Under the pieces are notes generated by a model. It did no database searches. It was not told the origin of the DNA and saw only the letters and a program-made list of their open reading frames with translations. Source: a candidate division WWE3 bacterium (GTDB lineage: Bacteria > Patescibacteriota > WWE3 > 2-01-FULL-39-13). Taken from it: a stretch of DNA of 64,000 bases. Shown here piece after piece: positions 2,135 through 32,116 of this stretch; the first letter of the stretch is position 1, and each line of letters opens with the position of its first letter. The translations under genes were made by a program, and so were the position numbers. The DNA is taken from contig CALRDH010000001.1 in assembly GCA_943354835.1 (NCBI GenBank), positions 191,298-255,297 of the forward strand, read 5' to 3'.

Positions 2135-2536
2135 TTATGGTTCTAGCCTCTTTGAGTCAAGTTTATCAAAGTCTTTGTCAAATGAATAAATTTGTTTGCA
2201 TTCATAGTTTTTTTCATCATTTAAACAGTCTACAAAATCAACATTTAGTTTTTCATATTTAACAAGAGCCTTCAGTATTAAGTTTATTTCCTCGACGTGT
2301 AACTTTGGGGTGTTGATTATTGATTTGATTACATCTGCAATATCGTTTTTCTTGAATTTATATAGAGATCTCAGTGTAAATTCTATTTCCATAATTACGA
2401 AAATTGTTGTATAGAAGGTTCCTTTTTCAGTATTGGCAATCTCGGTCAGAAATCTTTTTGATTTTGTAGATTGTATCTTGTGATCATCAAGTATGGCTCT
2501 TAAAAAAACATTCGTATCAATAAGGTAGCAGGTCAT
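2135..2536 (-). CDS. vapC: PIN-domain toxin (VapC-like)
   Basis: 133 aa protein MTCYLIDTNVFLRAIL... has the PIN N-terminal acidic motif. It overlaps the upstream antitoxin gene by 4 nt. Confidence 0.75.
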   Translation of the reverse strand: MTCYLIDTNVFLRAILDDHKIQSTKSKRFLTEIANTEKGTFYTTIFVIMEIEFTLRSLYKFKKNDIADVIKSIINTPKLHVEEINLILKALVKYEKLNVDFVDCLNDEKNYECKQIYSFDKDFDKLDSKRLEP

Positions 2537-2820
2537 TCAATTCCTTCGTGTACTATCGTTTTTGCATTAATTTCCATGGCTTTTCCAACGTCATCTTTTT
2601 TTGTGATATATTTTTTATCCTTCTTGAATTTATAACCAAAAAAGTCTTTTACTGTTTTGGTAATCGGTTTTATAATGATTTTATCATCTAGCAATTCAAA
2701 CACTACAATATCATTTGGGGAAATGGTCAACTCATTTCTGAACGCTATTGGTATTGTTATTTGTCCTTTTGTAGTTACGGTCGAAGTATTTCTATTCATG
2801 ATGTTGGAATTGTAACACAA
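2533..2820 (-). CDS. vapB: AbrB/MazE/SpoVT-type antitoxin (VapB-like)
   Basis: The segment TVTTKGQITIPIAFRNELTISPNDIVVFEL is a typical swapped-hairpin AbrB-fold motif. The true start may be the internal MNRNTST (ATG at about 2799). Confidence 0.7.
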   Translation of the reverse strand: MCYNSNIMNRNTSTVTTKGQITIPIAFRNELTISPNDIVVFELLDDKIIIKPITKTVKDFFGYKFKKDKKYITKKDDVGKAMEINAKTIVHEGIE

Positions 2821-3031: not shown

Positions 3032-4204
3032 ATGAAAAATTTCGATCCCTATCAAATTATCACCATCGTACTTTCTATAGCAATTATCGCGTCTATTGGA
3101 GTTTTTATTTATAACCTATCGTTTGGTGGTTTTGGCAAAGCCGCTTTAAGTGTTGATACACAAAATGGCAAAGCAACAGTAATTATTAATGGAAAAGATA
3201 AAGGGGAAACACCTGTTTATACGGAAGAACTTAACGCAAAAAATATAAATGTCCAAGTAAATGGTGAAGGTGCTTCGTATAGCACAATTGTTAAACCTGC
3301 AGGAGGAACTTTGGCCGTCATAAAAAGAGAACTTGGTGCAGGTGGAGCTTTTAGCTCTGGCTTAAATATTTGGTTTACTAAAGGTTCTGGGGCAGATTCA
3401 ATAATTTCTGTTATATCCCCAGATAGTGAAGGCGTTTCTGTTATTGTTGATGGCGTTGAAATGGGAAAAACACCAGTTAAGTTTTCAACTGGGGATTTGT
3501 TAAAGCAAAATGCTGAAGGCAAATATGTTCTTACTTTTAAAAAAGATAGATATCAAGATCAAGAAGTAGAAATAAAAGTTAAGCCTGGATATGAATTAAA
3601 TATTAGAACGGACATGTTTTTGAAACCCTTATCATCTGAAATTGTTTCATTAAGTGGATTTGCAGAAGGAATAAGATTTGTCGGATTTAAAGGAATGACA
3701 GATGCGGCTTTTGCCGACCGAAAGGTCTGGGCAAAAGCCGCATCCTACTGGCTTTCTTCTCGTGGTGCAATCACATTTGATGGAAATAAGATTGAAAAAT
3801 TTAATTACTTTTTATCCGATGACGGAAAGATTTTCAATTCAGAAGCAAATGAAATTTCAGCCGAAGACCTAAAGGTTGAATCAGGAAATGTTGTAATGTA
3901 TTTAGGTTCTGGAAATGATTCAAATATTTCAGATCCCGCAAAAACTATTATCGAAAAGGCAACTGGGAAAATTTCTCCTGCAGCTCCAAGCGCAGATGGA
4001 AAAGGAAGAATTAAAATTAAACCAACTGGCATTGGATATTTAAAGGTTCGAAGTTCCGCTTCAACTGGAAGCACCCAAGTAGGAAAAGTTGATGAAGGCA
4101 CTATTTTCAATGTTATTGAAGTTAAAAATGGATGGTATAAAATTTCTTACGAAACTGGTAAAGATGGTTGGGTTAGTGGAACGTATGTTGAAAGCGTCGA
4201 TTAA
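3032..4204 (+). CDS. Membrane-anchored protein with PEGA-like repeats and C-terminal bacterial SH3 (SH3b) domain
   Basis: N-terminal TM helix; VxVDGxxxGxTP PEGA-like segments; C-terminal GYLKVRSSASTGSTQVGKVDEGTIFNVIEVKNGWYKISYETGKDGWVSGTYV resembles SH3_3. Confidence 0.5.
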   Translation: MKNFDPYQIITIVLSIAIIASIGVFIYNLSFGGFGKAALSVDTQNGKATVIINGKDKGETPVYTEELNAKNINVQVNGEGASYSTIVKPAGGTLAVIKRELGAGGAFSSGLNIWFTKGSGADSIISVISPDSEGVSVIVDGVEMGKTPVKFSTGDLLKQNAEGKYVLTFKKDRYQDQEVEIKVKPGYELNIRTDMFLKPLSSEIVSLSGFAEGIRFVGFKGMTDAAFADRKVWAKAASYWLSSRGAITFDGNKIEKFNYFLSDDGKIFNSEANEISAEDLKVESGNVVMYLGSGNDSNISDPAKTIIEKATGKISPAAPSADGKGRIKIKPTGIGYLKVRSSASTGSTQVGKVDEGTIFNVIEVKNGWYKISYETGKDGWVSGTYVESVD

Positions 4205-4219: not shown

Positions 4220-4798
4220 ATGTACGCTAAAACTTTAGTAAAACTTATAGACTACGCAATATTTCCAGCTGTTTTAATTGCTTTTGCAAAAATTGGATCA
4301 GCCATTTTATTTTCTCGGTATTTTGATTTTTCATATAAATCCGATGGTGTGCGAATTGTTTTTGAAAGTGCGGAAGCTTTCATTGCAGTTAATTCATATT
4401 CGTCTTTAGTGATGTTTTTTTCTGTTCTTGCTGGACTTGGATGGGTAATTGTGAAGGCTCATTTATTTCACGATACACATATAAGCCCATCTTTTTCAGC
4501 AAAGCTTTTTAGTATGAATTTGCAAGAACTCATTCACACAACTGAAACTATATATTCTCAGGCTTTCATTTGGCTTTCATTTGCTTGGTTAACTACTATA
4601 GTTTTCGGGGTTTATAGCTATTTTGGTTTATCTTATGTTTGGATATTTTTTGTATCATTAGCATTTTCGATTATAGCAACGACTCTTTTAATTATTGATA
4701 TTGAAAAAGAAATTAAATCCGACAAAGAAATGTTTGATATTCCTTTTGAGCCGACTAATCGAGTCGTAAAATTTTCCGAGGAAATATTCGTAGCATGA
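4220..4798 (+). CDS. Hypothetical polytopic membrane protein
   Basis: 192 aa hydrophobic ORF, same strand and translationally coupled (ATGA overlap) to the next ORF. Confidence 0.4.
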   Translation: MYAKTLVKLIDYAIFPAVLIAFAKIGSAILFSRYFDFSYKSDGVRIVFESAEAFIAVNSYSSLVMFFSVLAGLGWVIVKAHLFHDTHISPSFSAKLFSMNLQELIHTTETIYSQAFIWLSFAWLTTIVFGVYSYFGLSYVWIFFVSLAFSIIATTLLIIDIEKEIKSDKEMFDIPFEPTNRVVKFSEEIFVA

Positions 4799-5223
4799 AA
4801 ACAATTCTAAAAAATTCCTTATTAGTTTCTATAGTTGCAGGACTTTTAGTTCTTCCTTTGTCTGGATTCGGACTTTTTGATTACACAAAGAGTGAAATAT
4901 CTCCTGCTGCGACTGTTTTAGGTGTACAAACTGCCATCTCATCTCAGCCAAAGATAAAAGTAATTGATCAGATTAGTTTGAAATTATCTATTTCTGATGA
5001 GAATGTTCAAAAATTTTATAATGTTGTTCCAGAAGAATACCTTTTTCCCGAATTCACTTCTTATGCTATTGGACCAAAAGATTTAGTTGATGCCGGATAT
5101 GTTTTTGAAATCGTTGAGAATGGATTATCAAAAGACCTTATAGTTACCGCGCCTAAATCTTTATCTAAATTAAAATCGCAAATTATTGAATTACCAATAA
5201 TCATAATAAAAGCAGAAAATTAA
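4795..5223 (+). CDS. Hypothetical secreted protein
   Basis: 142 aa ORF with an N-terminal signal-like hydrophobic segment. Confidence 0.4.
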   Translation: MKTILKNSLLVSIVAGLLVLPLSGFGLFDYTKSEISPAATVLGVQTAISSQPKIKVIDQISLKLSISDENVQKFYNVVPEEYLFPEFTSYAIGPKDLVDAGYVFEIVENGLSKDLIVTAPKSLSKLKSQIIELPIIIIKAEN

Positions 5224-5246: not shown

Positions 5247-6167
5247 ATGATGATTTATCATTTTGTAAGGGCACTAAGACCAAGACAGTGGATAAAAAAT
5301 GCGGTTGTGTTTGCACCTCTTGTATTTCATGGAGTTTTATTTAACCCGTCATATTTTTTCAAAGCATTTTTAGCATTCTTATATTTTTGTGGGGTCGCCT
5401 CTGCATCATATTTAATCAATGACATTTGGGATGCACAAAGAGACAGACTGCATCCAGTAAAAAAGAACCGGCCTATAGCTTCGGGAGATTTACCTGTCAA
5501 AGTAGCTTGGGTCGCTGTTTTTATTTTATTTACTATTTTATTACCAAGTGCTTTTTTTGTAGTAGGAAAATATTTTGGAATTGTTTTATTACTTTATGTG
5601 TTTTTACAGATTGCATATAATTTCAAATTAAAAAACGTAATAATCGTTGATGCATTAACAATTTCGATCGGCTTTATTTTAAGAGCCTTCGCAGGAGCTC
5701 TAGCGATTCCTTTATCAATTTCATCTTGGTTAATTCTTGCAATTACAGGGGTTTCCCTACTATTAGCTTTTGGAAAACGTCGTGCTGAAAGAACTTTGCT
5801 TGAAGCGCAAGGAATTTCAAAAGCCAGTACAAGGTCAATATTAAGACATTATCCAGATAATTTGCTTGATTCTATGATTTCCATGTCTGCATCATTTTCG
5901 ATCATTACATATTCCTTATTTGCTTTTCAGGTTTCGCCAGAAAACTCTGTAGTCAGGGACCTTAGTTCTTATATACCTTCTACATTGTTAAGTGCGAAAT
6001 TGTTAATGTTAACAATTCCTTTGGTTATATATGGAGTAGGTAGATATTTATATGTGATTTATGAAAAAAGAGAGGGAGAAAGTCCTGAACGCGTTTTGTT
6101 AGACGATAAGCCTCTTTTTTATACTGCAATTATTTGGATTATTTCTGTAATCCTTATCACAAATTAA
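5247..6167 (+). CDS. UbiA-family prenyltransferase resembling decaprenyl-phosphate phosphoribosyltransferase (DPPR synthase)
   Basis: RPRQWIKNAVVFAPLVF, NDIWDAQRDRLHPVKKNRPIASG and multiple TM helices are the hallmark motifs of the DPPR-synthase subgroup of UbiA (Rv3806c-like). Confidence 0.7.
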   Translation: MMIYHFVRALRPRQWIKNAVVFAPLVFHGVLFNPSYFFKAFLAFLYFCGVASASYLINDIWDAQRDRLHPVKKNRPIASGDLPVKVAWVAVFILFTILLPSAFFVVGKYFGIVLLLYVFLQIAYNFKLKNVIIVDALTISIGFILRAFAGALAIPLSISSWLILAITGVSLLLAFGKRRAERTLLEAQGISKASTRSILRHYPDNLLDSMISMSASFSIITYSLFAFQVSPENSVVRDLSSYIPSTLLSAKLLMLTIPLVIYGVGRYLYVIYEKREGESPERVLLDDKPLFYTAIIWIISVILITN

Positions 6168-6170
6168 GTC

Positions 6171-7601
6171 TTATTTTGTTGGTTTTTTTACAAAATTTAG
6201 AAGTGCGATTCCTGCAATGATTACTGTTGCAAGAGTTGCAAGTGATAGAGCTCTTAATTGTCCTGAAGTCAAAATTCCTATAGCTCCAAGTAATAATGTT
6301 GTTGACCAATAAAAGATTGCAACTTTTTGTTTACTCCAGCCTAATCCTTCTAATAATTTATGGTGCAAATGCTCCCTATCGCCCCAAAATGGCATTTGAC
6401 CGCGTCTTAATCTTCTTACAATTGCGAAAAGTCCATCTAAAAATGGAATCATTAAAACAATCAATGTCGTCGCGACTTTTGTACTTCCAAGAATTGATAA
6501 CGCTGCGATAATAAGGCCTGCTGAAGTTGCACCAAACCCCCACAATAATTTTTGAGGTGGCCATGTAAAAAGTGCCATTCCAAGTCCTGCTCCAGATGTA
6601 AGTGCGGCTAGTTTTATAAATATGCCAACGCCTGGATCTTCATCTAATGTTTGAAGCATTAATATAGAAATTACAAAAGACGCAATTGTTACAAGTCCTG
6701 CATAAACTCCATCGGTTCCATTTGCCCATGACATAAAATTCATTGTCCAACCAATCCATAGTGCTGATGCAAGAGCTCCTAAATAATAAATTTTATGTTC
6801 TCCCATGAAATCTATTACATATTTGTAGGAGTCTAGTTTTATTGCTTCGCCAAATGGATTTGAAATATAGATTAGAATTATTCCAGATAAAACAGCAATC
6901 GCAATTGATAGTCCTTGAACCAAAAGTCTCTTGTATGGGCTTACATCCTTTTTATCATCTATAAGACCAACAACAACGCAAATGATAGAGCCTAATATTA
7001 TTCCAACTATTTTTTGACTTGAAAGAATAGGTAGAAGAAAAATCCCTGGTATTAAAATTCCAAGTAAAAAAGCTAATCCACCAGCTCTTGGTACGGGTTT
7101 TTTCAAAAGCATTGCTGGATGTTTATGTCTGAATGGGTCATCCATAAAGTTATACTTTTTGGCTAACTTAATTACCATTGGTGTGACTACTATTGTTGTT
7201 AGAAATGACAAAATCATTGGAACAAGCAATAGCCTTGTCCAAATAGGAAATATGATTTCTTTTGAAACTGATATATTTGCAATTCTAATTGTGTATAAAC
7301 TTAAGACAGAAACACAAAGAAGTGTCACGACGGAATAAAACCTTGAAATATAGAAATTGGATTTAGTATTTTCGACTATAGAGAAGGTTGCGTTTGTGAT
7401 TATTATAATCGCCGAAAGTGCAAGTAATATCCAAATGTTTGATTTATCTGCTAATTGTAAATTTCCCCAAGGTAAGGTATAGAGAAACGGAATTTTTGGG
7501 GGCAAGAAACTGTATGCAATTTTAATGTAATAACTTGTTAATAAAAATATTATTGTGCTTGCAATGTATATCCAGGTTAAAGAATTTAGTGTAAGTTTCA
7601 T
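6171..7601 (-). CDS. Polyprenyl-phosphate sugar-1-phosphate transferase (MraY/WecA, GT4 family) with ~150 aa N-terminal membrane extension
   Basis: HKHPAMLLKKPVPRAGGLAFLLG, DDKKDVSPYKRL and NFMSWANGTDGVYAGL are conserved MraY/WecA cytoplasmic-loop motifs; 10+ TM segments. Confidence 0.65.
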   Translation of the reverse strand: MKLTLNSLTWIYIASTIIFLLTSYYIKIAYSFLPPKIPFLYTLPWGNLQLADKSNIWILLALSAIIIITNATFSIVENTKSNFYISRFYSVVTLLCVSVLSLYTIRIANISVSKEIIFPIWTRLLLVPMILSFLTTIVVTPMVIKLAKKYNFMDDPFRHKHPAMLLKKPVPRAGGLAFLLGILIPGIFLLPILSSQKIVGIILGSIICVVVGLIDDKKDVSPYKRLLVQGLSIAIAVLSGIILIYISNPFGEAIKLDSYKYVIDFMGEHKIYYLGALASALWIGWTMNFMSWANGTDGVYAGLVTIASFVISILMLQTLDEDPGVGIFIKLAALTSGAGLGMALFTWPPQKLLWGFGATSAGLIIAALSILGSTKVATTLIVLMIPFLDGLFAIVRRLRRGQMPFWGDREHLHHKLLEGLGWSKQKVAIFYWSTTLLLGAIGILTSGQLRALSLATLATVIIAGIALLNFVKKPTK

Positions 7602-9145
7602 CTTGTTTTGGGTGTATAAAATGTAGTTTTAGGAAGTTCTCCAAACATCATTCTAGTTTCTGCATACAAAAATGGAACGAATGAAAATGTTAGCAAATTC
7701 AGCATTAACGCCGGACCTTCGATTATTGCGATAATTCTTCGCCAAAGCGGCCATTCTTTTGGAAGGCTACCCTTATATAGCATCATACGAACATATGTTG
7801 CTGGTATAAAAATAAAAAGCCCTCCTGTTAGTATTATGCTTAAAACTTGAGGAAGTCCGTAAACCGTTGAGGAATTTTTAAAAGCTGTATTAACAAATGT
7901 AATCAAAGAAAATCCGACTGTAATTAAAAAAGCGCTAGTTCTCATTAATAAATGTCGTTCAATTTTTGAATAACCCCACAATATTTTTTGTTCTAACGTA
8001 GCTTTTTTATTGTTTGCTTGTTTTAAGATTGCTTTTAATGCTATTACTGTTGTAACGCTTCCCCATCCCCATCTGACAAGTTGTTTATACAAATTCTGAT
8101 TTGCATTTATAAAATTTTTGCCGCCTGTTGCATCTCCATAAATTGGAATATAAAAATGCTTCTCGGAAAAATCTCCTTCTCTTGCGCCAAATGCTCTCCA
8201 GTAAAATACAGTATCGTCAATCAATGTTGTATCCCAAAAATCAGCTGCGATTAGTGTATCAAGTGCGCACGAATAACACGAAAACGACTCTTTTGGCATG
8301 CTGAAAAGATGACCCGAGGTCCAATTTGAAAGCATTCCTAAAGTTACATTGTTTGCTTCGATTCTCGAAGTTAAAGGAACTGTCCAGATATTATTGCTAA
8401 AAAGATGTACAACGGTTTCATAAAATCTATTAAATCTTTTTGCATCAATCAAATATTCGTATGCAATTCTTGAAAGAAATTCTTTGTGGATTTTCCAGTC
8501 AGAATCGTATGTTGTGAATATATAATTCTTAATATTTTTACTTTGTTTTAAAAGCTCTTTGACTGCATGCTTTGCTGCCCATGCTCTATTTGGTGAAGCT
8601 ACTCCAACAATTTCTCCGGGGATTCCTTTTGGATGTGCAAAAAACATTAATTCTGGAAAATTATTTTTATCATAATTTCCACGGATTTTTTCTAAAGTAC
8701 TTTTAACTTTTTCTTCGCCGAACTCTTCAACTCCAACAACCAATAAAATATTTTTAACTGGGAATGAAGATTTTATTATTGTTTCGATAGTTTCACTTAA
8801 AATTTCATAACCTTCGCTTACTGTAGGGATTAATATTAAATGCTTGAGTTTGTCTAGGCTTTCGGGTAAGGTTTCATTATTTGGAAGGTCTTTAAAATTT
8901 AATTCTTTGCATTTTTCGTACCAATCTATTGAAATTTCCTTTTCGTAAATTTTGTAACCTTTAATTAGCCCGATTCCATGAGTTATTGCCATATATACCC
9001 AATAAACTGCTAGATACGTTAGTATAAATGCAGCGATTTTTGGAGCTATAAGACCAAGCCAAATTGGCATAAGAAGCATTGTCCAAGTTAATACACCCGG
9101 AACTGCCATTAAAAATCTGTCTAATTTATTTTTCGTATCGATCAT
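7598..9145 (-). CDS. Membrane glycosyltransferase, GT2-like processive synthase (QxxRW motif)
   Basis: 515 aa with TM helices flanking a cytoplasmic domain carrying DSDW and QLVRWGWG (QxxRW), reminiscent of cellulose/chitin-synthase-like GT2. It overlaps the neighbours by 4 nt, so is likely operonic. Confidence 0.4.
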   Translation of the reverse strand: MIDTKNKLDRFLMAVPGVLTWTMLLMPIWLGLIAPKIAAFILTYLAVYWVYMAITHGIGLIKGYKIYEKEISIDWYEKCKELNFKDLPNNETLPESLDKLKHLILIPTVSEGYEILSETIETIIKSSFPVKNILLVVGVEEFGEEKVKSTLEKIRGNYDKNNFPELMFFAHPKGIPGEIVGVASPNRAWAAKHAVKELLKQSKNIKNYIFTTYDSDWKIHKEFLSRIAYEYLIDAKRFNRFYETVVHLFSNNIWTVPLTSRIEANNVTLGMLSNWTSGHLFSMPKESFSCYSCALDTLIAADFWDTTLIDDTVFYWRAFGAREGDFSEKHFYIPIYGDATGGKNFINANQNLYKQLVRWGWGSVTTVIALKAILKQANNKKATLEQKILWGYSKIERHLLMRTSAFLITVGFSLITFVNTAFKNSSTVYGLPQVLSIILTGGLFIFIPATYVRMMLYKGSLPKEWPLWRRIIAIIEGPALMLNLLTFSFVPFLYAETRMMFGELPKTTFYTPKTR

Positions 9146-9912
9146 TTTAATTTAAAAAATGCAAAGGCATTTTTCGTGGTTCTATCTTCTACCTCTTTTG
9201 TGGAAATCCCTTTGATTTCAGCAATTTCTTGTGCTACAAGTTTAACATATTTCGATGAATTTACTTTTACTCCAGCCTTTTTGGCGCTTATCGGAATTAG
9301 GTATGGAGAATCTGTTTCTAACATTATTTTTTCTAGTGGAATTCTTTTTATGGCGTCTCTTAAATCACCCGCGTTTGGGTATGTAACGATGCCTGTTATA
9401 GATAACATAAGTCCAAGATCTAAGGCTTTTTTTGCGGTTTCGTAATTTTCGCAAAAACAGTGCCAGACGGCGGGAAATGGGGCGCGCCCCATTTCCCGCC
9501 CTAATATATCTAATAAATCTTCTGTCCCTTGTCTTGAATGTATTATTATTGGCAAATTCAATTCTCTTGATATTTCAATTTGAGAAATAAACAAGGATGC
9601 TTGAGCATCCTTGCTTCTCTTTATTTCTGGTAAGTGTGGATTTGTATAATCAAGTCCACATTCTCCAATTGCGACAACTTTTTTGCTTCTTGCTAATTCT
9701 TTTATCAATTTCAATTTTTCCCCGTCTGGGATTTCATTTTCGGGAATTACATCATGAGGATAAAGTCCGCATGTTGCAAAAACGTGATCATTTGAATTTG
9801 CTTTTTCTACTGCGTTTTTAGCTTCAGACAATGTGTGTCCGATGAGTATCTCTATGTCTGCTCTTTCTTCGTTGTTTTCGGATATTGAGTGAGTGTGCGT
9901 ATCAACAATCAT
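9142..9912 (-). CDS. tatD: TatD-family metal-dependent hydrolase/DNase
   Basis: MIVDTHTHS... (HxH), ...IGECGLDY..., ...WHCF... and ...ETDSPYL... are the four TatD metal-binding motifs in order. Confidence 0.85.
   Translation of the reverse strand: MIVDTHTHSISENNEERADIEILIGHTLSEAKNAVEKANSNDHVFATCGLYPHDVIPENEIPDGEKLKLIKELARSKKVVAIGECGLDYTNPHLPEIKRSKDAQASLFISQIEISRELNLPIIIHSRQGTEDLLDILGREMGRAPFPAVWHCFCENYETAKKALDLGLMLSITGIVTYPNAGDLRDAIKRIPLEKIMLETDSPYLIPISAKKAGVKVNSSKYVKLVAQEIAEIKGISTKEVEDRTTKNAFAFFKLK
9469..9500. repeat. 32-bp perfect GC-rich palindrome GGCGGGAAATGGGGCGC|GCCCCATTTCCCGCC embedded in the tatD coding sequence
   Basis: Read directly; it encodes the GREMGRAPFPA loop of TatD. GC-rich in an AT-rich genome. 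Confidence 0.7.
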
Positions 9913-9916
9913 TTTA

Positions 9917-10447
9917 CTAGATGAAAAATGGGAATATTCTGATTATTGCGTATGATCCAATTATCGCGACAAGAATTCCCAAAAAAGCTCCGCCAATGAC
10001 GTCTGCAAGATAGTGCTTTCCAAGAAATATTCTTGTTATGGCGACGAGGCCTGCTATACCAAATACAAACATTGTTTCAACAATATTGTATTTATAATAT
10101 ATGGTCATGAGTGTTGCTAATGTAAAGATATTTGATGTGTGTCCTGACGGGAATGCTCCACTTGATAATTTCATCCCCCATAAATTATTTTTGAACGTGG
10201 TTTTTGGGCGTGGAATTTTGAATAAAAATTTTATTCCTTCAGCTATTATTAATTGCGTTAGATAAATAGGAACGAATGCGAAAAGTGCTTGATAACCGCT
10301 TATTACCGCAATTATTATAAGGATTATGCCAGCTCCGAATGAACTTCCGAGTTCTGTGAATATAAATATAAACTTTTTAATTCGAGAATCTTTTATATCA
10401 TTTTCGAAGTCAAAAGATGTTTTGAGCAAGGAATTTATTAGCTTCAT
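9917..10447 (-). CDS. PAP2-family lipid phosphatase (undecaprenyl/decaprenyl-diphosphate or phospho-sugar-lipid phosphatase-like)
   Basis: KFLFKIPRP...PSGHTS...HYLADVIGG matches the PAP2 signature KxxxxxxRP / PSGH / SRxxxxxHxxxD, with multiple TM helices. Confidence 0.7.
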   Translation of the reverse strand: MKLINSLLKTSFDFENDIKDSRIKKFIFIFTELGSSFGAGIILIIIAVISGYQALFAFVPIYLTQLIIAEGIKFLFKIPRPKTTFKNNLWGMKLSSGAFPSGHTSNIFTLATLMTIYYKYNIVETMFVFGIAGLVAITRIFLGKHYLADVIGGAFLGILVAIIGSYAIIRIFPFFI

Positions 10448-17543: not shown

Positions 17544-17843
17544 ATGAAGAAAACTCAAAGAGAAATAAATATTCGTGAAGCAAGACCTCTCCTTAATAAG
17601 TTATCTGAAGAAGTCGCGTTAACTGATGGTTATTACATAATTACTGTTCGAGATAAACCAAGGTCCATATTAACAAATTACAATGAAGAATTGGTTAGCA
17701 TGCTTGACAAGAAAATGTCTAAAAAATCTGTTACTGCAGGCTCTGTTTTTGCAGATGGAATGGGTAAATGGTTTAAAAACAATCCCCCTATAATTTCTAA
17801 AAAAGATATCACAAGAGAGATTGATAAAATCGCATATGTTTGA
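17544..17843 (+). CDS. Phd/YefM-type antitoxin
   Basis: INIREARPLLNKLSEEVALTDGYYIITVRDKPRSILT fits the Phd/YefM N-terminal fold; overlaps the downstream PIN gene by 23 nt. Confidence 0.6.
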   Translation: MKKTQREINIREARPLLNKLSEEVALTDGYYIITVRDKPRSILTNYNEELVSMLDKKMSKKSVTAGSVFADGMGKWFKNNPPIISKKDITREIDKIAYV

Positions 17844-18264
17844 CGAAGTCTCTTCCTTACTTTTAGATACAAGTTTTATTGTCGGACTTTTTTATGGAGA
17901 TAAATCGACTATTGATAAAGTTTATGATGTTTTGCCTGCGCTCATCACTGTAGACCATCTGTATATTAATAATTACATTATGTCTGAAACACTTACTGTG
18001 CTTTCTCAAAGGATTGGAAAGAAAAAGGCAAGGGAAAGCCTTGAATTTATTTCTGGGCAACGCGTAGATTTAATAGATATCTTAAGAAAAACCGAAGATT
18101 TGGCATTCGATGAATTCTTTAAAATTGAAAGAAAGGATATTAGTTTTGTTGACGTGATGTCTGTTTTGCAAGCTAAAGAAAAATCAATAGGTGGTGTGCT
18201 TACTTTGGACAAGCATTTTGGGTATCTAGGTAAGAAATATGGTGTAAAGATATTTGCGCTGTAA
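17821..18264 (+). CDS. PIN-domain toxin (VapC-like)
   Basis: LLLDTSFIVGLFY... is a PIN acidic N-terminal motif; 147 aa, overlapping the upstream antitoxin. Confidence 0.65.
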   Translation: MIKSHMFDEVSSLLLDTSFIVGLFYGDKSTIDKVYDVLPALITVDHLYINNYIMSETLTVLSQRIGKKKARESLEFISGQRVDLIDILRKTEDLAFDEFFKIERKDISFVDVMSVLQAKEKSIGGVLTLDKHFGYLGKKYGVKIFAL

Positions 18265-22196: not shown

Positions 22197-22504
22197 GTTT
22201 TCCATCTATATTTTTCGATTTCAACTTCGTGTTCTTTTTTAAATTTTACGCCTTCTTTTTCTAAAAGCGATTGTTGGTCATCGCGATTAAATATCGACCC
22301 ACGGATTGTTAGTTTGCCTTCATTGTTTATGACTCTCCACCATGGGACCTCTGTGTCGGCAGGAAGCTTGTTTAAAATCATACCGACAGCTCTTGCTGCA
22401 CGTGGTGAACCTGCATAAACCGCGATTTGGCCGTAAGAGGCAACCTTGCCGAAAGGGATTGCCTTGATGTGGTTTATAGCTTTTTGCTTAAAATTCTCCA
22501 TCAA
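22178..22504 (-). CDS. Alkyltransferase-like (ATL) DNA-binding protein (MGMT fold lacking catalytic Cys)
   Basis: AIPFGKVASYGQIAVYAGSPRAARAVGMIL...VPWWRVIN has the MGMT helix-turn-helix plus PWxRV in place of PCHRV, which is the ATL signature. Confidence 0.6.
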   Translation of the reverse strand: MMENFKQKAINHIKAIPFGKVASYGQIAVYAGSPRAARAVGMILNKLPADTEVPWWRVINNEGKLTIRGSIFNRDDQQSLLEKEGVKFKKEHEVEIEKYRWKTHELKL

Positions 22505-23240
22505 TTATTTTTTCTGCAAATTTTAATTGTTCAGGTGTATTTATCCCGATTCCTTCTTTTGGGTTTATTGATATTGTTTCTATTTTTGCATTTGATTTTA
22601 TTGCGAGAGCTAAAAGATCTGTTAGGTAATATTCTTTTTGAGCGTTATCAGCTTTAATTTTTGCTATGTTTTCCCAGAGCCAATTTGAATTAAAGCAGAA
22701 ATATGATGGATTAACTTCCTTAATCGCGAGTTCTTCTGGTGTAGCATCTTTCTTTTCTACTATTTTTATCGGACGATTACTGTCGTCTCGAACAATTCTT
22801 CCGAAATCATAAAAGCATGACTGCCATGAATCAAAATTATCAACGGAAATTGTTGCCATTGTAAGATCGGCCATTTTTTCTGAATGTTTATTTATAATGT
22901 CATTTATTGTTTGAATTGAGATAAATGGCATGTCACCATATAAAACAAGAACATTATCAAATTTATTTGAAATTGCGTCTTTAGCGCACATTACTGCGTG
23001 TCCAGTTCCTAATTGTTCCGTTTGTTCTACATAATTGTAATCTTGGCCGACTACATTTTTTACTAAATCTTTTTCATACCCGACAACAATATAGATATCA
23101 GACTTCGAAAATTTTGAATCTAGTGACTCAAGTAAATATTTAATAAGTGGCTTTCCATTTAAGCTTACAAGAACTTTTGGCTCAAGCGTTCCCATTCTTG
23201 TGCCTTTGCCAGCTGCCAAAATTAAAATAGCGGTTTTCAT
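22488..23240 (-). CDS. Sugar-1-phosphate nucleotidyltransferase (GlmU N-terminal-domain-like, e.g. UDP-GlcNAc pyrophosphorylase)
   Basis: MKTAILILAAGKGTRMGTLEPKVLVSLNGKPLI is the GxGTRx motif of the nucleotidyltransferase family; 250 aa with no acetyltransferase hexapeptide domain. Confidence 0.7.
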   Translation of the reverse strand: MKTAILILAAGKGTRMGTLEPKVLVSLNGKPLIKYLLESLDSKFSKSDIYIVVGYEKDLVKNVVGQDYNYVEQTEQLGTGHAVMCAKDAISNKFDNVLVLYGDMPFISIQTINDIINKHSEKMADLTMATISVDNFDSWQSCFYDFGRIVRDDSNRPIKIVEKKDATPEELAIKEVNPSYFCFNSNWLWENIAKIKADNAQKEYYLTDLLALAIKSNAKIETISINPKEGIGINTPEQLKFAEKIIDGEF

Positions 23241-24545: not shown

Positions 24546-25277
24546 ATGCTACAAAAATATTTGATTCAGTATTTCCGGATGGCTAGATTATATAAAACCT
24601 TTAATTTTCTTTTTGTAGTTTTGGGATACGGTATTGCTTCAATGACTATTTCTGTAGTAATGTTTGGCCGATTGGTTTTATTTTATTTTCTATTTGCTGT
24701 TTTTATTTATGGAGCGCTTTATGTTTTCAATTCAATTGAAGATAATTTAGATATTGAGGCAAAGATTTATAACTTACAATTTCGTTTCGTTATTATTAGT
24801 ATCTCTTTTGGGATTATCGGCTTATATTTACTTTCTCCTGAAACTTTGCCGGTAGTTGGAACACTTATATTATTAAATATAATTTACTCAAAATTCTTGA
24901 AGAAGATGTCTGTACCACTAGCAATAATTATTATTGCTTCAACTGGATCATTGAAAATACTTTTAGGCGTTATTCTTGCTGGTGGTAGCTTTGCTTTATT
25001 TGTTCCATTATTAGTTTGTAATTATCTTTCTTCTGTATGTTTTCATTCACTAAGAAATCATTTTAAAGGAGCCTTATCGATTGCTGTTCTCAAAGTACTT
25101 TATGTATGCAGTATTACTGCATTGATGTTTTTAACTTTTTATTATTCTACAACTGGATCATTGATTGATATGTATATTTGCATCTTTTATATGTTGTTTT
25201 GTGTTATTTCACTATCCGTATTTGTAAAAAATAATATTATTGGTAGCGCAATTATTAACTTTATGCACTTGCGATAG
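24546..25277 (+). CDS. Hypothetical polytopic membrane protein (weak UbiA-like N..D..D motif)
   Basis: 243 aa, about 7 TM helices, NSIEDNLDIE segment. Confidence 0.35.
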   Translation: MLQKYLIQYFRMARLYKTFNFLFVVLGYGIASMTISVVMFGRLVLFYFLFAVFIYGALYVFNSIEDNLDIEAKIYNLQFRFVIISISFGIIGLYLLSPETLPVVGTLILLNIIYSKFLKKMSVPLAIIIIASTGSLKILLGVILAGGSFALFVPLLVCNYLSSVCFHSLRNHFKGALSIAVLKVLYVCSITALMFLTFYYSTTGSLIDMYICIFYMLFCVISLSVFVKNNIIGSAIINFMHLR

Positions 25278-25280
25278 CTC

Positions 25281-26360
25281 CTATGTCAGTAGCGGTTTTA
25301 TATATTTTTCTATTGATGATTTGGATAATCTTGGAAGATAGTCACCTAAAAAATAAACGCCATTTGCGAGTTTTATATTTTTTTGAAAATCCATAATGGA
25401 TTTTTCTGTTAGGCCAAAGGCTTTATCGCAGACGAATATATCTGGATCAATAAGCCAAATCTTTTTGGTATTAAGTCGAGCTTTCAAATTGTTCGACAAG
25501 TGATTTAGTCTTCTTTCGTGCATGAATTTATTTATTGGGAAAATATTTTTTAGTTCGGGAATTATAATGTCTTCGCTAATTCTAATTGCGTTTACTTTGC
25601 CAGCTGCAGGCGAAAGTGGACATCCACATCCAATTATTTTAACGTTCTTATTTATTTTTCTTATATCTGAGAGAAGTTTTGATAGCATTTTGTCGGGTTT
25701 ATCTGAAGATGTATATTTTGTGTTGTAATGCCCAGCATATAAAAAGTCTAATTTAATCAACTCATATCCCCAGACTTTTATTATGCTTTCCAAGCATTTA
25801 ATTATATAGTCATAAGCTTCTTTTATTTCGAGATCTAAGATGTACTTTTTCCTAGGTATTAATTTATCGAAGAAAAAATTTTTTAATCCATTTATTGGTT
25901 GTCTTGTTTTATTTCTTACTATCCATTCAGGATGCTTCTTATAAACTGATGATTTTGGTCCTATTAAAAATGGTGAAACCCATATTCCTGGTTTTATATT
26001 TTTGCTTTTAATATATTTGGCGACCTCTTGCATCATTTGTGGAAACTTATTTGTATCGCATGAATCCCAGTCTCCCCATTGTGTCCACCCGTCATCTATA
26101 ACTAGATAATCGAGTTTTAATGTATTTGTGTTTTCATACATCCAATCAGCGATTTCAAATATATCTGATTGTGAAACGTTTCTTCCAAAATATGGCCAAG
26201 ATGACCATCCACGAATTGGTTTTTGATTTTGTGGTTTGTCAATCGTGCATTCACTGTTATCCATTCCGAACGGAGAAAAATATCTAATCCTCGATAATAG
26301 CGTTTTTTCTTTTCCGCAAGCCGTCCAAGATTGCCAGCCTGTTAAATTAACTTTTTCCAT
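25281..26360 (-). CDS. Glycoside hydrolase, alpha-galactosidase/melibiase-like (GH27/GH36-type TIM barrel)
   Basis: IRGWSSWPYFGRNVSQSDIFEIADWM...LDYLVIDDGWTQWGDW...FPQMMQEVAKYIKSKNIKPGIWVSPF matches the GWxSW ... IDDGW ... FP.G...KPGIY motif series of clan GH-D. Confidence 0.55.
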   Translation of the reverse strand: MEKVNLTGWQSWTACGKEKTLLSRIRYFSPFGMDNSECTIDKPQNQKPIRGWSSWPYFGRNVSQSDIFEIADWMYENTNTLKLDYLVIDDGWTQWGDWDSCDTNKFPQMMQEVAKYIKSKNIKPGIWVSPFLIGPKSSVYKKHPEWIVRNKTRQPINGLKNFFFDKLIPRKKYILDLEIKEAYDYIIKCLESIIKVWGYELIKLDFLYAGHYNTKYTSSDKPDKMLSKLLSDIRKINKNVKIIGCGCPLSPAAGKVNAIRISEDIIIPELKNIFPINKFMHERRLNHLSNNLKARLNTKKIWLIDPDIFVCDKAFGLTEKSIMDFQKNIKLANGVYFLGDYLPRLSKSSIEKYIKPLLT

Positions 26361-26374: not shown

Positions 26375-27706
26375 TTAAACGGGATATGGCGAGTTTGCTA
26401 ATCCCAGTTTAAATAGAATTCTTTCTATTGCGAAAACCATTTGGCTGTTTTTGATGCTCCAAAGCCATCCAGGTTTTCCGTCGTATAGTGTGTGCCAGTT
26501 TCCATCAAACATTAAAATCCCAAGTAGTTGTGTAAAAATGCTAAAAACAAAAAATGTCCAGAAAATTATATTAAACGGTTTCTTAACAAAATATTTCGAA
26601 GTAATGAACGGAATTAAAAGCAAAACCATATATGGAATCATTTCAGTCATCATTCTGTATCCCCAACAGTAACCGCCGTACCAGGCATACCATTTTCCAA
26701 GAGCTACCGTGTGAAAAAAAATAATCAAAATCATAGCGATTTCAAATGGGCGTTCTTTCCAATTTCTAACATATTTATTAATTCCGTAGAAAATAAATAT
26801 TAAAATAGGGGAAACAATTAAAACGCCTTTACTTGGAGAAATCCAAAGTCCTGATGCTCCTACAATTAATTTCTCATAAAAATCACCGAATCTATCGCCG
26901 TATTCAATGTTTAAAAGCGAACCAAATAAATATCTATTTAATGCGGCATCTAAAATAAATGGAATTACTGCCATTAAAGCGTATTTTATGCAGTTCATTA
27001 AAAGTTCATTAAAACTTTTGCGGTGAATCCATAATATATACAAGCCGAAAATTCCAATCGATATAATATTTGTTGGTCTTGCCATATATGAAAATCCGAA
27101 AATTAAACCAGCCCACCCATACTTTTTATAATCCAAAAGCAAAATTCCTGCCGTAAATAAAAGTTGGCTTGAAGTTTGTTGCCATAAACCTTGGCTACTC
27201 GTGCTAAAAGTATTTGTTGCGAAGGCGTAAATTATTGTCAAAAGTAAAACCTGTTTACTTGATTTTAAGCGTTTTTGAAGAAGCAAAAAGAAAAGTCCAA
27301 CCGAAAGTGCTGTCATTGCAGAAGCCGAAAGCCTGCTCATCACACGAATAGATTCAATCGAAACGTCCAAGTTTAATAATGATGGGACGATGTAAAACGG
27401 CGTTGCCAAAAAGCCTGCAAACATTGGATAACTTGAATAATACTTTTCACCGACTTGTTTTAGGTAATACGGAGTTTGTGTTTTATCGTCCGGCTGCGGG
27501 TAAGAGTCGGAAAGTACTTCGTAATATTCATTTAAATCTAAATTGCCTTCTTTAATAATAGAAAACGGAACTGTTGCGATAGCAAGAAAATCCTCGCTTT
27601 GAAGAGTTAAATTATTTAACTGTGTAAGATAGACGGACAAGAACGATGAGACAAAAATTAAGAAAGACAGAACTGTTATTGTAGTGAACGAAAAACGGAA
27701 TTGCAT
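26375..27706 (-). CDS. GT-C-fold polytopic membrane protein (glycosyltransferase family 39/83-like), paralog 1 of 6
   Basis: 443 aa with 10+ TM helices and architecture like the other paralogs in the window. Confidence 0.4.
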   Translation of the reverse strand: MQFRFSFTTITVLSFLIFVSSFLSVYLTQLNNLTLQSEDFLAIATVPFSIIKEGNLDLNEYYEVLSDSYPQPDDKTQTPYYLKQVGEKYYSSYPMFAGFLATPFYIVPSLLNLDVSIESIRVMSRLSASAMTALSVGLFFLLLQKRLKSSKQVLLLTIIYAFATNTFSTSSQGLWQQTSSQLLFTAGILLLDYKKYGWAGLIFGFSYMARPTNIISIGIFGLYILWIHRKSFNELLMNCIKYALMAVIPFILDAALNRYLFGSLLNIEYGDRFGDFYEKLIVGASGLWISPSKGVLIVSPILIFIFYGINKYVRNWKERPFEIAMILIIFFHTVALGKWYAWYGGYCWGYRMMTEMIPYMVLLLIPFITSKYFVKKPFNIIFWTFFVFSIFTQLLGILMFDGNWHTLYDGKPGWLWSIKNSQMVFAIERILFKLGLANSPYPV

Positions 27707-27752: not shown

Positions 27753-29282
27753 TTGAAATTATTATTAATCTTTCTCGCGATTTATTTCTGCTTTTCATTT
27801 TTTACGTATAAAGACTATGGTGCAACTGGCGATGAGTCGACTGAAAGACGTGCGGCTCAGGACTTGTCGCGATATTTAAGCTCTCCGACCTCTTATGATT
27901 CGATAATTAATTATAATTACAACGATAAAATTAACGTTACTTTTGGCCATCATCCACTTGTAACAAAGTATCAACGTTCATATCAATTAATTCAAAACTA
28001 TTTCAATTTTAAAGGCTATTATGAATGGGGTCATTTATTTAATTTAATCTTCGGATCTATACTTTTTGTTTTAACTTATTGTGTATTTTTTATTGAATAC
28101 AAATCGTCAAAAAAAGCCATAATCCCTGTGATTTTTTTAGCCACGTGTGCAAGGTTGTCTGGCGATATTCCGACGAATAATAAGGATGTCCCATTTGCCA
28201 CGATGTATCTGGCTTCCGTTTTGCTCATATATTTATTTTCAAAACTGGAACCAAATAAATACTTGAAGATTCTTTTACTTGGAATTGTTTTTGGTATAAC
28301 TCAAACGTTTCGGGCTGTTGGGTTTTCGATTTATTTTGTATACATAATTTATTATTTTTACAATGAATTTATAGAAGGCCGAAAATTCACAGTTTCCAAA
28401 ATCGCCAATTTCTTTCTAGAGTTGTCCATAATTGTTGGATTCTCACTTTTTATCTCGATGTCAATTTTTCCGTGGCTAGGTTCAAACTTTTTCGCTAATT
28501 TTTTTAATCTACTTTTAGATGCAAAAAGTTTCCAAAACTGGGATGACACGATATTTTTCGCTGGTAAATTTTTATATAAAGCAGATCGTCCATGGTATTA
28601 CTTATTCACATGGATTTTCATTACAACTCCTGTTTATATTTTAGCTTTAATGGGATCGTCAGTTTTTTTCGTAAAAAAGCTTTTTAGAAATAAGCTTTTT
28701 GTAATCTCAACAATTTCGATGTTTGTAAACATATGCCTTTACTTAGCCATGCATCCAGTTATTTACAATGGTATTAGACATTTTTTGTTTATCTTGCCAA
28801 TGATCGTAATTTTTTCGGGAGTCGTATTTGTCTATTTATTGGAACACGTAAACAAAAAAATATTCAGATATATCGGGATTTTAATAATTTTGAATATATC
28901 GCTTGTTGTGTATGACTTATATCGACTTCATCCATATGAATATATCTACTTTAATGAATTAATTGGAGGAATACGTGGAGCTTCGGGCAAATATGAATTG
29001 GATTATTGGGGCGCAAGCTATAAAGAGGCTACTGAATGGATTGTTAAAAGTACTGATTTAACACAAAAAGATTTTATATATGCGTGTAATGTTGATTATG
29101 CTGTTGATTATTATTCAGGTAAAAAATTCTTTATGACTTATGGATACCCAGAGTACGCAAACTACACGATTTGCGATAGCGAAAATGAAATGAAGCGAAA
29201 CTACACTGGAAAAATCTTATACGAGGTAAAGCGTGATGGAGTTATTTTAAATACTGTAAGAGAACATGAAAAAACTAAGTAA
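27753..29282 (+). CDS. GT-C-fold glycosyltransferase (PMT_2/ArnT-like), paralog 2
   Basis: First extracytoplasmic loop YKDYGATGDESTERRAAQDL (DE motif) after TM1, then 11+ TM helices and a C-terminal soluble domain. Confidence 0.5.
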   Translation: MKLLLIFLAIYFCFSFFTYKDYGATGDESTERRAAQDLSRYLSSPTSYDSIINYNYNDKINVTFGHHPLVTKYQRSYQLIQNYFNFKGYYEWGHLFNLIFGSILFVLTYCVFFIEYKSSKKAIIPVIFLATCARLSGDIPTNNKDVPFATMYLASVLLIYLFSKLEPNKYLKILLLGIVFGITQTFRAVGFSIYFVYIIYYFYNEFIEGRKFTVSKIANFFLELSIIVGFSLFISMSIFPWLGSNFFANFFNLLLDAKSFQNWDDTIFFAGKFLYKADRPWYYLFTWIFITTPVYILALMGSSVFFVKKLFRNKLFVISTISMFVNICLYLAMHPVIYNGIRHFLFILPMIVIFSGVVFVYLLEHVNKKIFRYIGILIILNISLVVYDLYRLHPYEYIYFNELIGGIRGASGKYELDYWGASYKEATEWIVKSTDLTQKDFIYACNVDYAVDYYSGKKFFMTYGYPEYANYTICDSENEMKRNYTGKILYEVKRDGVILNTVREHEKTK

Positions 29283-30618: not shown

Positions 30619-30623
30619 CCCTT
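30611..30623. terminator. Recurring 13-nt hairpin motif AAGGGTAGCCCTT spanning the stop codons of two convergent genes
   Basis: The same motif (or its reverse complement) occurs at 18266, 32203 and 60000. Here the TAG stop of the + gene and TAA stop of the - gene both lie inside it. Confidence 0.3.
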
Positions 30624-31491
30624 ATAATTCCTCTAGCTCTCCGAGTCCAGATTCTTTTCTGTCTATATAGCGAAGGTAGTTTTCTGTTGTGGTTAGTCTT
30701 TTGTGTCCTGCGATTTTAGAGACGAGAAGAACGCTTGCTCCTCTTTTGAGGTGTTCTGCTACAAATGTGTGTCTTAAATCATTTACAGTGACGTCATCGA
30801 GCTGAATTTGTTTAAGATATCTTCCAATTGTCGCTCTTATGTTTCTAACTAGTAATGGATTTCCTGTTTTTGTTACGAATAAATGGTCGAGTTTTGAAGA
30901 AGGTCTTTCTTTTAGAAAGCCTTTTATTGCAGAAATTACTGCAGAATTAAGAGGAATTGTTCTGCCTGGGTTTTCTTTTGTTCCAGGTACTTCTAAAATT
31001 CCTTTTGCATCATGTTCTATTTTTATGTGATCGACTTTAATAAATGCTAATTCAGATATTCTAAGGCCTGTTTGAAGGAAGATTTCTATTATTGCACGTG
31101 TTCTTATATCGTCTTTTACTGTATCTCTTAACGCTCTGTACTCGATTTTAGTTAATATTCTTGGAGCATTTTGCTCAAGCCTTGGATGTTGAATAAATTG
31201 TGCAGGATCGTTTTCTATAATTCTTTCGTCAAGAAGAAATTTAAAAAATGTTTTGATTGCATTTATTTTTCTTGAGATAGTTTTTTTTGTGTAATTACTG
31301 TCCGATAGGTTTCTTAAGAAGTTCTCAATAATGGATTTACTAAGCTCGTGGGCACTTGATATATTTTGCCTTACTGCGAAGTCTGCTAATTGCTCAATAT
31401 CCTTTGCATAGGCCACAACAGTCGCTGTCGCTCTGCCTTTTGATATCAAACTCTGTACAAATTTTTCCCTCGCTGATGACAATAGTGTCAT
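30622..31491 (-). CDS. Tyrosine site-specific recombinase, XerC/XerD family
   Basis: 289 aa with catalytic R...HxxR...Y spacing (ARG, HDLRHTF, TENYLRY) and an N-terminal SAM-like core-binding domain. Confidence 0.8.
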   Translation of the reverse strand: MTLLSSAREKFVQSLISKGRATATVVAYAKDIEQLADFAVRQNISSAHELSKSIIENFLRNLSDSNYTKKTISRKINAIKTFFKFLLDERIIENDPAQFIQHPRLEQNAPRILTKIEYRALRDTVKDDIRTRAIIEIFLQTGLRISELAFIKVDHIKIEHDAKGILEVPGTKENPGRTIPLNSAVISAIKGFLKERPSSKLDHLFVTKTGNPLLVRNIRATIGRYLKQIQLDDVTVNDLRHTFVAEHLKRGASVLLVSKIAGHKRLTTTENYLRYIDRKESGLGELEEL

Positions 31492-31581
31492 ATTATAAGT
31501 TATATTATCTTGGGCAGATCAAACAACTATAAGTTTAGTCTATACACACAAAAAAAAGTGTCAATACTTTTAGACACTTTT

Positions 31582-32091: not shown

Positions 32092-32116
32092 ATGTCTAGT
32101 ATACTATTCCCATGAT

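Follow-up and report, generated by a model that had tools for sequence, protein, structure and literature searches.

A predicted phosphoribosyl-lipid synthase and its envelope gene neighborhood in candidate division WWE3

The question raised by this locus is whether a bacterium of the candidate division WWE3 makes and uses a lipid-linked pentose donor of the kind known from mycobacteria. In Mycobacterium tuberculosis, the UbiA-superfamily enzyme Rv3806c, a decaprenyl-phosphate phosphoribosyltransferase (DPPRS, also called DPPR synthase), and the PAP2 phosphatase Rv3807c feed DprE1/DprE2 and the Emb and Aft arabinosyltransferases, which belong to the GT-C class of glycosyltransferases (GTs). 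The stretch of DNA analyzed here, which we will call the window, comprises 64 kb of a 430-kb contig (CALRDH010000001.1, positions 191,298 to 255,297), has a GC content that varies from 30 to 40%, and contains a UbiA-type gene at 5247..6167 on the + strand. A first-pass annotation, made from the sequence alone, had placed this gene next to a PAP2 phosphatase and six GT-C paralogs and had argued that together they make up an elaborate surface glycosylation system dependent on polyprenyl-phosphate sugars. Every open reading frame (ORF) on which that proposal was built was found again where it had been placed.

The UbiA-type gene and its predicted activity

The 306-amino acid (aa) product of 5247..6167 (the public gene call begins one codon later, at 5250, and gives an otherwise identical protein) has the polytopic membrane fold of the UbiA superfamily, as indicated by its Pfam UbiA match (2.9e-19). 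Its closest named homologs come from candidate division WWE3, and the NCBI annotation of the WWE3 homologs is already decaprenyl-phosphate phosphoribosyltransferase. Two NCBIfam equivalog models for this enzyme were matched above their cut-offs, namely NF008977 (241.1 bits, cut-off 234), over the full length of the protein (residues 2-304), and NF008978 (225.7 bits, cut-off 207); a third model, NF008976, was failed (151, cut-off 474). The search of all PDB sequences returned two entries, both of them of Rv3806c (8j8j, E 7.3e-36), and no other UbiA-family structure at E < 0.01. The model for HAD-UbiA fusions, NF006088, was matched exclusively in its UbiA half, and no fused HAD phosphatase domain was found in the 306-aa protein.

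Membership of the UbiA superfamily, together with the label of 4-hydroxybenzoate polyprenyltransferase that the JGI pipelines give to the homologs, could also point to an ordinary aromatic or heme prenyltransferase (of the MenA, UbiA or CyoE type) or to a prenyltransferase of the archaeal-lipid type. We regard this as extremely improbable. The models for UbiA (4-hydroxybenzoate), CyoE (heme O), ChlG (chlorophyll) and GGGP-type (archaeal-lipid) enzymes gave from 17 to 45 bits, with cut-offs from 180 to 353; that is, the best complete UbiA-family model outside the DPPRS group reached 45 bits versus the 241 and 226 of the DPPRS models. The PDB search also failed to bring up the structures of such enzymes, and the residues specific for phosphoribosyl pyrophosphate (PRPP) are conserved.

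These residues are known from the structural work on Rv3806c, in which Mg is bound by N73 and D77, the pyrophosphate of PRPP by R22, K87, R90, K143 and Y138, and the ribose 5-phosphate by K28, Y70 and Y157; the phosphoribose site, including K28 and Y70, is absent from prenyltransferases (PMC10994848). According to the alignment from the PDB search, the NDxxDxxxD motif of Rv3806c corresponds to N58, D59, D62 and D66 of the WWE3 protein, with N58 and D62 standing for the Mg ligands N73 and D77. The pyrophosphate-binding residues are found (in the order given above) as R11, K72, R75, K129 and Y124, and those contacting the ribose 5-phosphate as K17, Y55 and F143. The Phe that takes the place of Y157 occurs in some mycobacteria too. 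With the exception of K129, all the mapped PRPP and Mg residues are invariant in 14 WWE3 homologs.

This sequence evidence strongly supports the prediction of an orthologue-grade polyprenyl-phosphate 5-phosphoribosyltransferase (DPPRS/PPPRS), i.e., the same type of enzyme as Rv3806c and as ORF15 of Citrobacter youngae (see below), and the protein very probably catalyzes the transfer of the phosphoribosyl group from PRPP to polyprenyl phosphate. Since the homolog fails to group with the quinone or heme O enzymes, the DPPR synthase call of the first-pass annotation, originally read from motifs, stands, and it is borne out by the two equivalog cut-offs, the PDB matches and the conserved residues. 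Our search of the literature for DPPRS or decaprenyl in combination with Patescibacteria, WWE3 or the candidate phyla radiation (CPR) found no publication.

The neighborhood of the UbiA-type gene

Immediately beyond the UbiA-type gene, on the - strand, lie four genes (6171..10447) separated by one 4-bp gap and otherwise overlapping by 4 bp, a spacing that is compatible with one operon. The identities proposed for them before were confirmed, by Pfam for three of the genes and by motifs and fold for the GT2. The first gene of the operon (9917..10447) codes for a PAP2 lipid phosphate phosphatase (Pfam PAP2, 2.9e-21) in which the motifs KX6RP, PSGH and RX5HX3D are intact. Among solved structures, its closest relatives are the generic lipid phosphatases LpxE (6ebu, 4.7e-10) and PgpB, and its nearest named relatives also include undecaprenyl-diphosphatases (SepP and YbjG). 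Its substrate may be either the polyprenyl-phosphoribose 5-phosphate or undecaprenyl diphosphate. It is followed by a TatD-family metal-dependent hydrolase (9142..9912; Pfam TatD_DNase, 4.6e-62), by a membrane-embedded GT2 of 515 aa (7598..9145) and by a WecA/TagO-like polyprenyl-phosphate sugar-1-phosphate transferase of the GT4/PNPT superfamily (6171..7601; Pfam Glycos_transf_4, 2.5e-13). The latter carries an N-terminal extension of ca. 130 residues, matches the WecA model TIGR02380 under its cut-off (9.1e-18) and has a distant PDB match to MraY (5jnq, 4.2e-8).

The 515-aa GT2 had no sequence match in Pfam, NCBIfam or PDB. Roughly 150 homologs are detectable, nearly all of them from WWE3 or other Patescibacteria, and a few of these have GT2 matches in Pfam. 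An alignment of 43 homologs showed D214/D216, D310/D311 and the QxxRW motif (Q355, R358 and W359) to be invariant. Its AlphaFold model (pLDDT 91.6, pTM 0.90) was compared by Foldseek, and the top matches were the hyaluronan synthases of a Chlorella virus and of Xenopus and the cellulose synthase BcsA (E about 1e-8, TM 0.53 to 0.55); the matches to hyaluronan synthase (HAS), BcsA and the chitin synthase Chs1 run along the whole length, with TM up to 0.55. On the basis of this model, the enzyme has a fold of the processive-synthase type (hyaluronan, cellulose or chitin synthase), so the earlier description as a QxxRW GT2 synthase was right; processivity itself is a prediction.

For the comparison with other genomes, we used 304 relatives of the UbiA-type gene confirmed by tblastn among species-representative genomes. 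The best 80 of the 304, all of them from WWE3 or Patescibacteria and including some complete genomes, were taken with 10-kb flanks on either side of the gene, the window proteins were searched in them, and all their ORFs were clustered. The commonest gene order was TatD, GT2, GT4, one or two variable genes (often a response regulator) and the UbiA-type gene, all on the same strand, and beyond it a small membrane protein and a four-helix membrane protein that we call tm192 (both on the opposite strand), a Wzy_C-family gene and an envelope protein with PEGA and SH3 domains. The Wzy_C-family protein (Pfam 1.4e-13) was found close to the UbiA-type gene in 60 of the 80 genomes, tm192 and the GT4 in 59 each (59 to 61 related loci for the GT4, depending on the search), the PEGA/SH3 protein in 53 (53 to 57 related loci), the 515-aa GT2 in 48 and TatD in 42. 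In 42 to 46 related loci, TatD, GT2 and GT4 followed one another directly in this order. Two further gene orders, made by local inversions, were seen in the sub-lineage of the window and in the locus L075, and across the three arrangements the UbiA-type gene, tm192, GT4 and GT2 remain neighbors. This persistence gives modest support to a linkage between them. The trio formed by the TatD hydrolase, the synthase-fold GT2 and the WecA-like GT4 thus recurs in over 40 genomes.

The most constant neighbor of the UbiA-type gene is tm192 (4220..4798, + strand), which was close to it in 66 of 82 loci when searched by tblastn (the figure of 59 genomes given above comes from protein clustering); a relative is found at 11233..11790 of L038, the locus from the genome RAAC2. 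The family has an invariant loop motif, FH..H..P (FHxTHIxP), the invariant residues D160 and E164 and, near the C terminus, a D.E.E motif. No Pfam match was obtained among the 42 members scanned, beyond sub-threshold matches of single members, and none in a PDB profile search. That tm192 might be a flippase or an accessory subunit is speculation. Between tm192 and the UbiA-type gene lies a small protein with a single N-terminal membrane helix (4795..5223, + strand), which overlaps tm192 by 4 bp, ends 23 bp upstream of the UbiA-type gene and has homologs in eight close relatives; the same position is held in other WWE3 genomes by short single-helix proteins (clusters 19 and 25). The PEGA/SH3 envelope protein (3032..4204, + strand; Pfam PEGA 1.3e-15 and SH3_3 8.1e-14) is found on the other side of tm192. 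As for the Wzy_C gene (O-antigen ligase/polymerase family), it is located just past tm192 in L038 (11846..13141) and in 59 other loci and is missing at the corresponding position of the window.

GT-C candidates and a second donor arm

Of the six GT-C-fold enzymes that had been proposed for the window, five are supported and one is not confirmed. The clearest case is 57441..59063 (+ strand), which matches Pfam PMT_2 above the gathering score (2.3e-15). The protein encoded at 27753..29282 (+ strand) had no direct Pfam match, and its assignment to the ArnT/PMT_2 type comes from its homologs (E 1e-30 to 1e-74), which carry PMT_2 (PF13231) and are named GT39, and from its AlphaFold model (pLDDT 93.6), for which the best Foldseek match was ArnT (5f15, TM 0.54), followed by PglB, STT3, Pmt4, AftA and EmbA/B. 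Three others are probable GT-Cs. Two of them are LA_3751/LA_3752-like and match NF047440, the model for these putative glycosyltransferases, below its cut-off (26375..27706, a polytopic membrane protein, - strand, 1.1e-10; 56165..57421, - strand, 3.2e-14). The third (29266..30618, + strand) matches PMT_2 below the gathering score (8.6e-5) and NF047440 below the cut-off (1.9e-17), and is related to the protein at 26375 (BLAST, 3.7e-11). The sixth (37847..39238, - strand) is a polytopic membrane protein with weak profile similarity and is an unconfirmed candidate. It belongs to a large uncharacterized family (9747 representative homologs at E <= 1e-3), in which the 40 members examined (the window protein and 39 homologs) showed no consistent Pfam or NCBIfam family, apart from two isolated matches, each of a single member, and nothing came up below E = 0.1 in a PDB profile search. 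By hhalign, this family matched that of the 27753 protein with 30% probability, and the 26375 protein matched it with 70%. The motifs DxDxGW, WxNxH, EW and DGRM are invariant within it.

These six proteins are not close paralogs and are remote relatives at best (pairwise identity <=23%, with most pairs invisible to BLAST). The description of the UbiA locus as next to them is loose, since 20 kb separate the UbiA-type gene from the closest GT-C. The verified GT-Cs are of the ArnT/PMT_2 type rather than of the oligosaccharyltransferase/O-antigen ligase-like kind that would have spoken against the first-pass annotation, and, as far as sequence and model can indicate, this is the type of enzyme that uses polyprenyl-phospho-monosaccharide donors. 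Elsewhere, the homologs of the 27753 GT-C are found in variable and unrelated gene contexts.

A different source of such donors is present at the right end of the window. There, an extended short-chain dehydrogenase/reductase (SDR) of the epimerase/dehydratase type (62140..63135, + strand; public gene call from 62182), with a Pfam Epimerase match of 4.2e-51 and the motifs TGxxGxxG and YxxxK, abuts an ArnC/GtrB/DPM1-like GT2, i.e., a polyprenyl-phosphate glycosyltransferase (63136..64000, + strand, cut by the window end; Pfam Glycos_transf_2, 5.2e-30), whose best NCBIfam match is ArnC (4e-34, under the cut-off). It is the only SDR in the window. A sugar-1-phosphate nucleotidyltransferase similar to the N-terminal domain of GlmU is encoded at 22488..23240 (- strand; Pfam NTP_transf_3, 3.1e-21), with GlmU models matching at about 1e-66 over their N-terminal half only. 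The DPM1-like GT2, the NAD-dependent epimerase and the sugar nucleotidyltransferase of the first-pass annotation are all recovered in this way. In the related locus L075 (94..2994), the SDR gene of a compact cassette is followed by that of a 326-aa ArnC/GtrB-like GT2, whose C-terminal tail is hydrophobic, and by a gene for a polytopic membrane protein of 299 aa, which we read, from its sequence, as flippase-like. The SDR and the ArnC-like GT2 resemble an independent donor arm that starts from a nucleotide sugar, and the GT-Cs of the window could be supplied by this arm instead of by the pentose donor; with this second donor present, they are not assignable to the pentose donor.

The surroundings of the GT-C genes hold several other features. 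Directly before the trio at 26375 to 30618, a melibiase-like glycoside hydrolase (Pfam 1.2e-17) and a 243-aa polytopic protein are encoded (24546..26360). The latter (24546..25277) was considered as a second, degenerate UbiA enzyme and ruled out (hhalign probability 0.4%). On the other side of the trio and 20 kb from the UbiA locus, a block with a XerC/D-like recombinase, an FtsB-like protein and tryptophanyl-tRNA synthetase (30622..33246) is found, and the same block lies in RAAC2 (L038 222..2926) just upstream of FtsH, TatD and GT2. The differing position points to a rearrangement; the recombinase seems to be a housekeeping gene, not part of a mobile element. Beside the GT-C pair at 56165 and 57441, four genes (53660..56168) code for the flavin transferase ApbE, a membrane protein carrying a bacterial TSP3 repeat, a very acidic small secreted protein and another small protein, whose single membrane helix is N-terminal (55797..56168). 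Farther from these genes, the window contains two PIN-domain toxin genes, one (2135..2536) with an adjoining MazE-type antitoxin (2533..2820) and the other (17821..18264, in the region 17544..18264) with a small ORF upstream. Beyond the left end of the window, past GroEL/ES on the same contig (L001 1..3493), TraC-like and PrgI-like genes are apparently part of a type IV secretion or conjugation-type apparatus.

The proposed route and its relation to known systems

From the orthologue-grade sequence, the UbiA-type enzyme would move ribose-5-phosphate from PRPP onto polyprenyl phosphate at the cytoplasmic face of the membrane. By analogy with characterized pathways, the 5-phosphate would then be removed by a phosphatase, which in this sub-lineage could be the PAP2 encoded at 9917..10447 or else a different enzyme, the polyprenyl-phospho-ribofuranose would be flipped over the membrane, and an ArnT/PMT-type GT-C would use it on the outside to attach the pentofuranose to a glycan or protein of the surface. 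The neighboring PAP2-TatD-GT2-GT4 operon most simply makes a separate polymer, which would be WecA-primed and synthase-dependent, and the scattered GT-Cs may be served by the ribose donor, by the donor of the SDR and ArnC-like GT2 (62140..64000), or by both. The whole, i.e., a DPPRS-type ribose donor route, an envelope neighborhood extending across WWE3 and a separate synthase operon, is the best explanation we have and a reasonably probable one.

Ribofuranose is more likely than arabinofuranose as the sugar delivered, because neither the window nor the surroundings of the gene in 80 relatives yielded an epimerase of the DprE1/DprE2 type. Pentofuranose systems without an epimerase add ribofuranose, while those for arabinose have DprE1/E2 and those for xylose an SDR epimerase (PMC11127046). 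The search for DprE1 covered the window and the related loci (ca. 1.3 Mb) by tblastn, with an unverified query sequence, and gave nothing at E < 1. Within the window, no FAD-type oxidase (FAD_binding_4/ALO) was found either, every ORF of at least 400 aa being otherwise assigned. These results bear on the possibility of a full arabinan donor pathway as in mycobacteria, with the UbiA-type enzyme and PAP2, an epimerization of the DprE1/DprE2 type and the GT-Cs acting as arabinofuranosyltransferases. The solid DPPRS orthology, the PAP2 gene in the same locus and the GT-C_A fold model of the 27753 protein, which also matches AftA and EmbA/B, would all fit such a pathway. However, AftA and EmbA/B rank below ArnT for that model, the best GT-C matches being ArnT/PMT_2 and not Emb/Aft, PAP2 is linked in nine of the 80 genomes only, and there is the lack of any match to the DprE1 query and of a FAD_binding_4/ALO-type protein described above. 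We consider this pathway quite improbable; with neither a DprE1-like epimerase nor a recognizable flippase found in the window or the related loci, a mycobacterial-style arabinose route is unsupported.

Several observations weigh against our preferred explanation, the ribose donor route with its envelope neighborhood and separate synthase operon. The components are not clustered, unlike those of characterized systems, and are spread over more than 50 kb. An iterated hidden Markov model (HMM) search of all ORFs located PAP2 within 10 kb of the UbiA-type gene in just nine of the 80 genomes, all of them from the sub-lineage of the window; the UbiA-PAP2 pairing in the style of Rv3806c/Rv3807c is, therefore, not conserved, and even here 3.7 kb separate the two genes, with PAP2 on the other strand and in an operon with the WecA-like enzyme and the synthase. 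No GT-C was detected within 10 kb of the UbiA-type gene in the 80 genomes, either with HMMs of two GT-C families or by phmmer with the six window proteins. A flippase of the MATE, SMR or GtrA type was not recognized among the window ORFs (here, as for the other searches of the window, 64 kb of the 430-kb contig are covered), nor was any recognizable flippase present in the 80 related loci, and the DprE1/DprE2 epimerase pair, not found in the 64-kb window or those loci, could lie elsewhere in the genome. The enzyme activity in the CPR homologs is itself a prediction from sequence. Finally, GroES/EL and alanyl-tRNA synthetase occur near the UbiA-type gene almost as regularly (in 38 to 40 and in 31 genomes, respectively), so that much of the pattern is lineage synteny and being neighbors says little about a common function. 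The surface glycosylation system based on polyprenyl-phosphate sugars that had been proposed holds, for the most part, for the identities of its genes, and their joint action is weakly supported, given the PAP2 linkage in nine of 80 genomes, the GT-C linkage in none and the failure to find a flippase or DprE1. The putative coupling of the UbiA-type enzyme to PAP2 and the GT-Cs finds little support in the genomes.

The same synteny could mean that these are independent housekeeping genes of the envelope. PAP2 would then be an undecaprenyl-diphosphate phosphatase recycling the carrier for peptidoglycan and for the WecA/synthase polymer, as its best named matches (SepP, YbjG, LpxE and PgpB) would allow, and 71 of the 80 genomes indeed lack PAP2 in the UbiA neighborhood. 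The GT-Cs would work on hexose or 4-amino-4-deoxyarabinose (Ara4N)-like donors from the SDR and ArnC-like arm, which does exist, with a flippase-like membrane protein in the related cassette, and the unrelated contexts of the GT-C homologs elsewhere agree with this; the ribose lipid would go to an unrelated acceptor. On the other hand, a phosphoribosyl-lipid would still require a 5-phosphatase and an enzyme that consumes the product, and no consumers of such donors other than GT-Cs are known (PMC11127046). Moreover, the UbiA-type gene, tm192, GT4 and GT2 have stayed adjacent through at least two local inversions. Independence of these genes strikes us as a serious candidate, although an unlikely one.

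It is also conceivable, if rather doubtful, that WWE3 has a lineage-specific wall or surface polymer, primed by the WecA-like enzyme, extended by the HAS-fold GT2, and decorated or branched with pentofuranose from the DPPRS, with new proteins, tm192 for instance, in place of the usual flippase and phosphatase. If this were true, a logic like that of arabinogalactan would have been reinvented in the CPR. There is almost no experimental knowledge about the envelope glycans of Patescibacteria, ultrasmall cells that attach to their hosts via the surface. From a core-conserved phosphoribosyl-lipid synthase, one would predict that the WWE3 surface bears pentofuranose, probably ribofuranose, and the recently defined PRPP-based route for pentofuranose donors would thereby reach into the CPR. 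As the automatic annotation by NCBI names DPPRS homologs and the logic of the pathway is published, this is an incremental gain, which would be larger if the synthase-fold GT2 and tm192 were functionally tied to the UbiA-type enzyme. More unusual are the by-products of the analysis: the lineage-restricted synthase-fold GT2, tm192 and the family of the 37847 protein with no Pfam model.

With M. tuberculosis, the WWE3 locus shares an orthologous first enzyme, in which the NDxxDxxxD motif and all PRPP and Mg contact residues are kept, a PAP2-family phosphatase and a GT2 in the same locus, and enzymes of the GT-C_A fold in the same genome region. It differs in that DprE1/DprE2 were not found in the window or the 80 loci, and in that PAP2 does not adjoin the UbiA-type gene and shows linkage to it in one sub-lineage only. 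There is no GT-C adjoining the WWE3 UbiA-type gene, whereas in M. tuberculosis aftB abuts ubiA. The GT2 also differs, since the Foldseek matches place it among membrane-embedded enzymes of the synthase type, and GlfT2-type GT2s are peripheral.

Another parallel is given by the three-component systems for pentofuranose side chains, such as that of Citrobacter youngae O1/O2, formed by ORF15 (PPPRS-PRP), ORF14 (MATE flippase) and ORF12 (a GT-C of family GT136) (Kelly et al. 2024, PMC11127046). Pentofuranose addition by a PPPRS combined with a phosphatase, a flippase and a GT-C has been established by experiment and is widespread (PMC11127046). Common to both would be a PRPP-dependent synthase of the polyprenyl-phosphate ribosyl donor, ribofuranose as the predicted sugar and an extracytoplasmic GT-C as the expected consumer. 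In contrast, the 306-aa WWE3 protein stands without a fused HAD phosphatase domain, there is neither a MATE flippase nor an adjoining GT-C, and the components extend over more than 50 kb and do not form a cassette. The SDR with its ArnC-like GT2 and the ArnT-like GT-Cs follow the same logic as the ArnC/ArnT and GtrB/GtrA/Gtr systems, differing from them in that all the WWE3 matches are below the curated cut-offs and the donor and transferase genes lie apart.

The operon, for its part, may have its counterpart in synthase-dependent polymers such as the O antigen of Salmonella O:54, whose WbbF pathway is started by WecA. According to a published account (PMC2841628), the WbbF synthase is also needed to carry the chain linked to undecaprenyl phosphate (UndP) across the membrane. 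Like the systems of WbbF and of hyaluronan, cellulose and chitin synthases, the WWE3 operon has a WecA-like initiator translationally coupled to a QxxRW GT2 with a synthase-type transmembrane architecture. Unlike them, its GT2 has no sequence similarity to any Pfam model, has Glu where GT2 enzymes usually have the first Asp motifs and is conserved together with a TatD hydrolase. By analogy, the coupling of a WecA-like GT4 to a synthase-fold GT2 recalls the WbbF route, and the WWE3 case as a whole fits the known PRPP-based pentofuranose donor systems, placed in the CPR.

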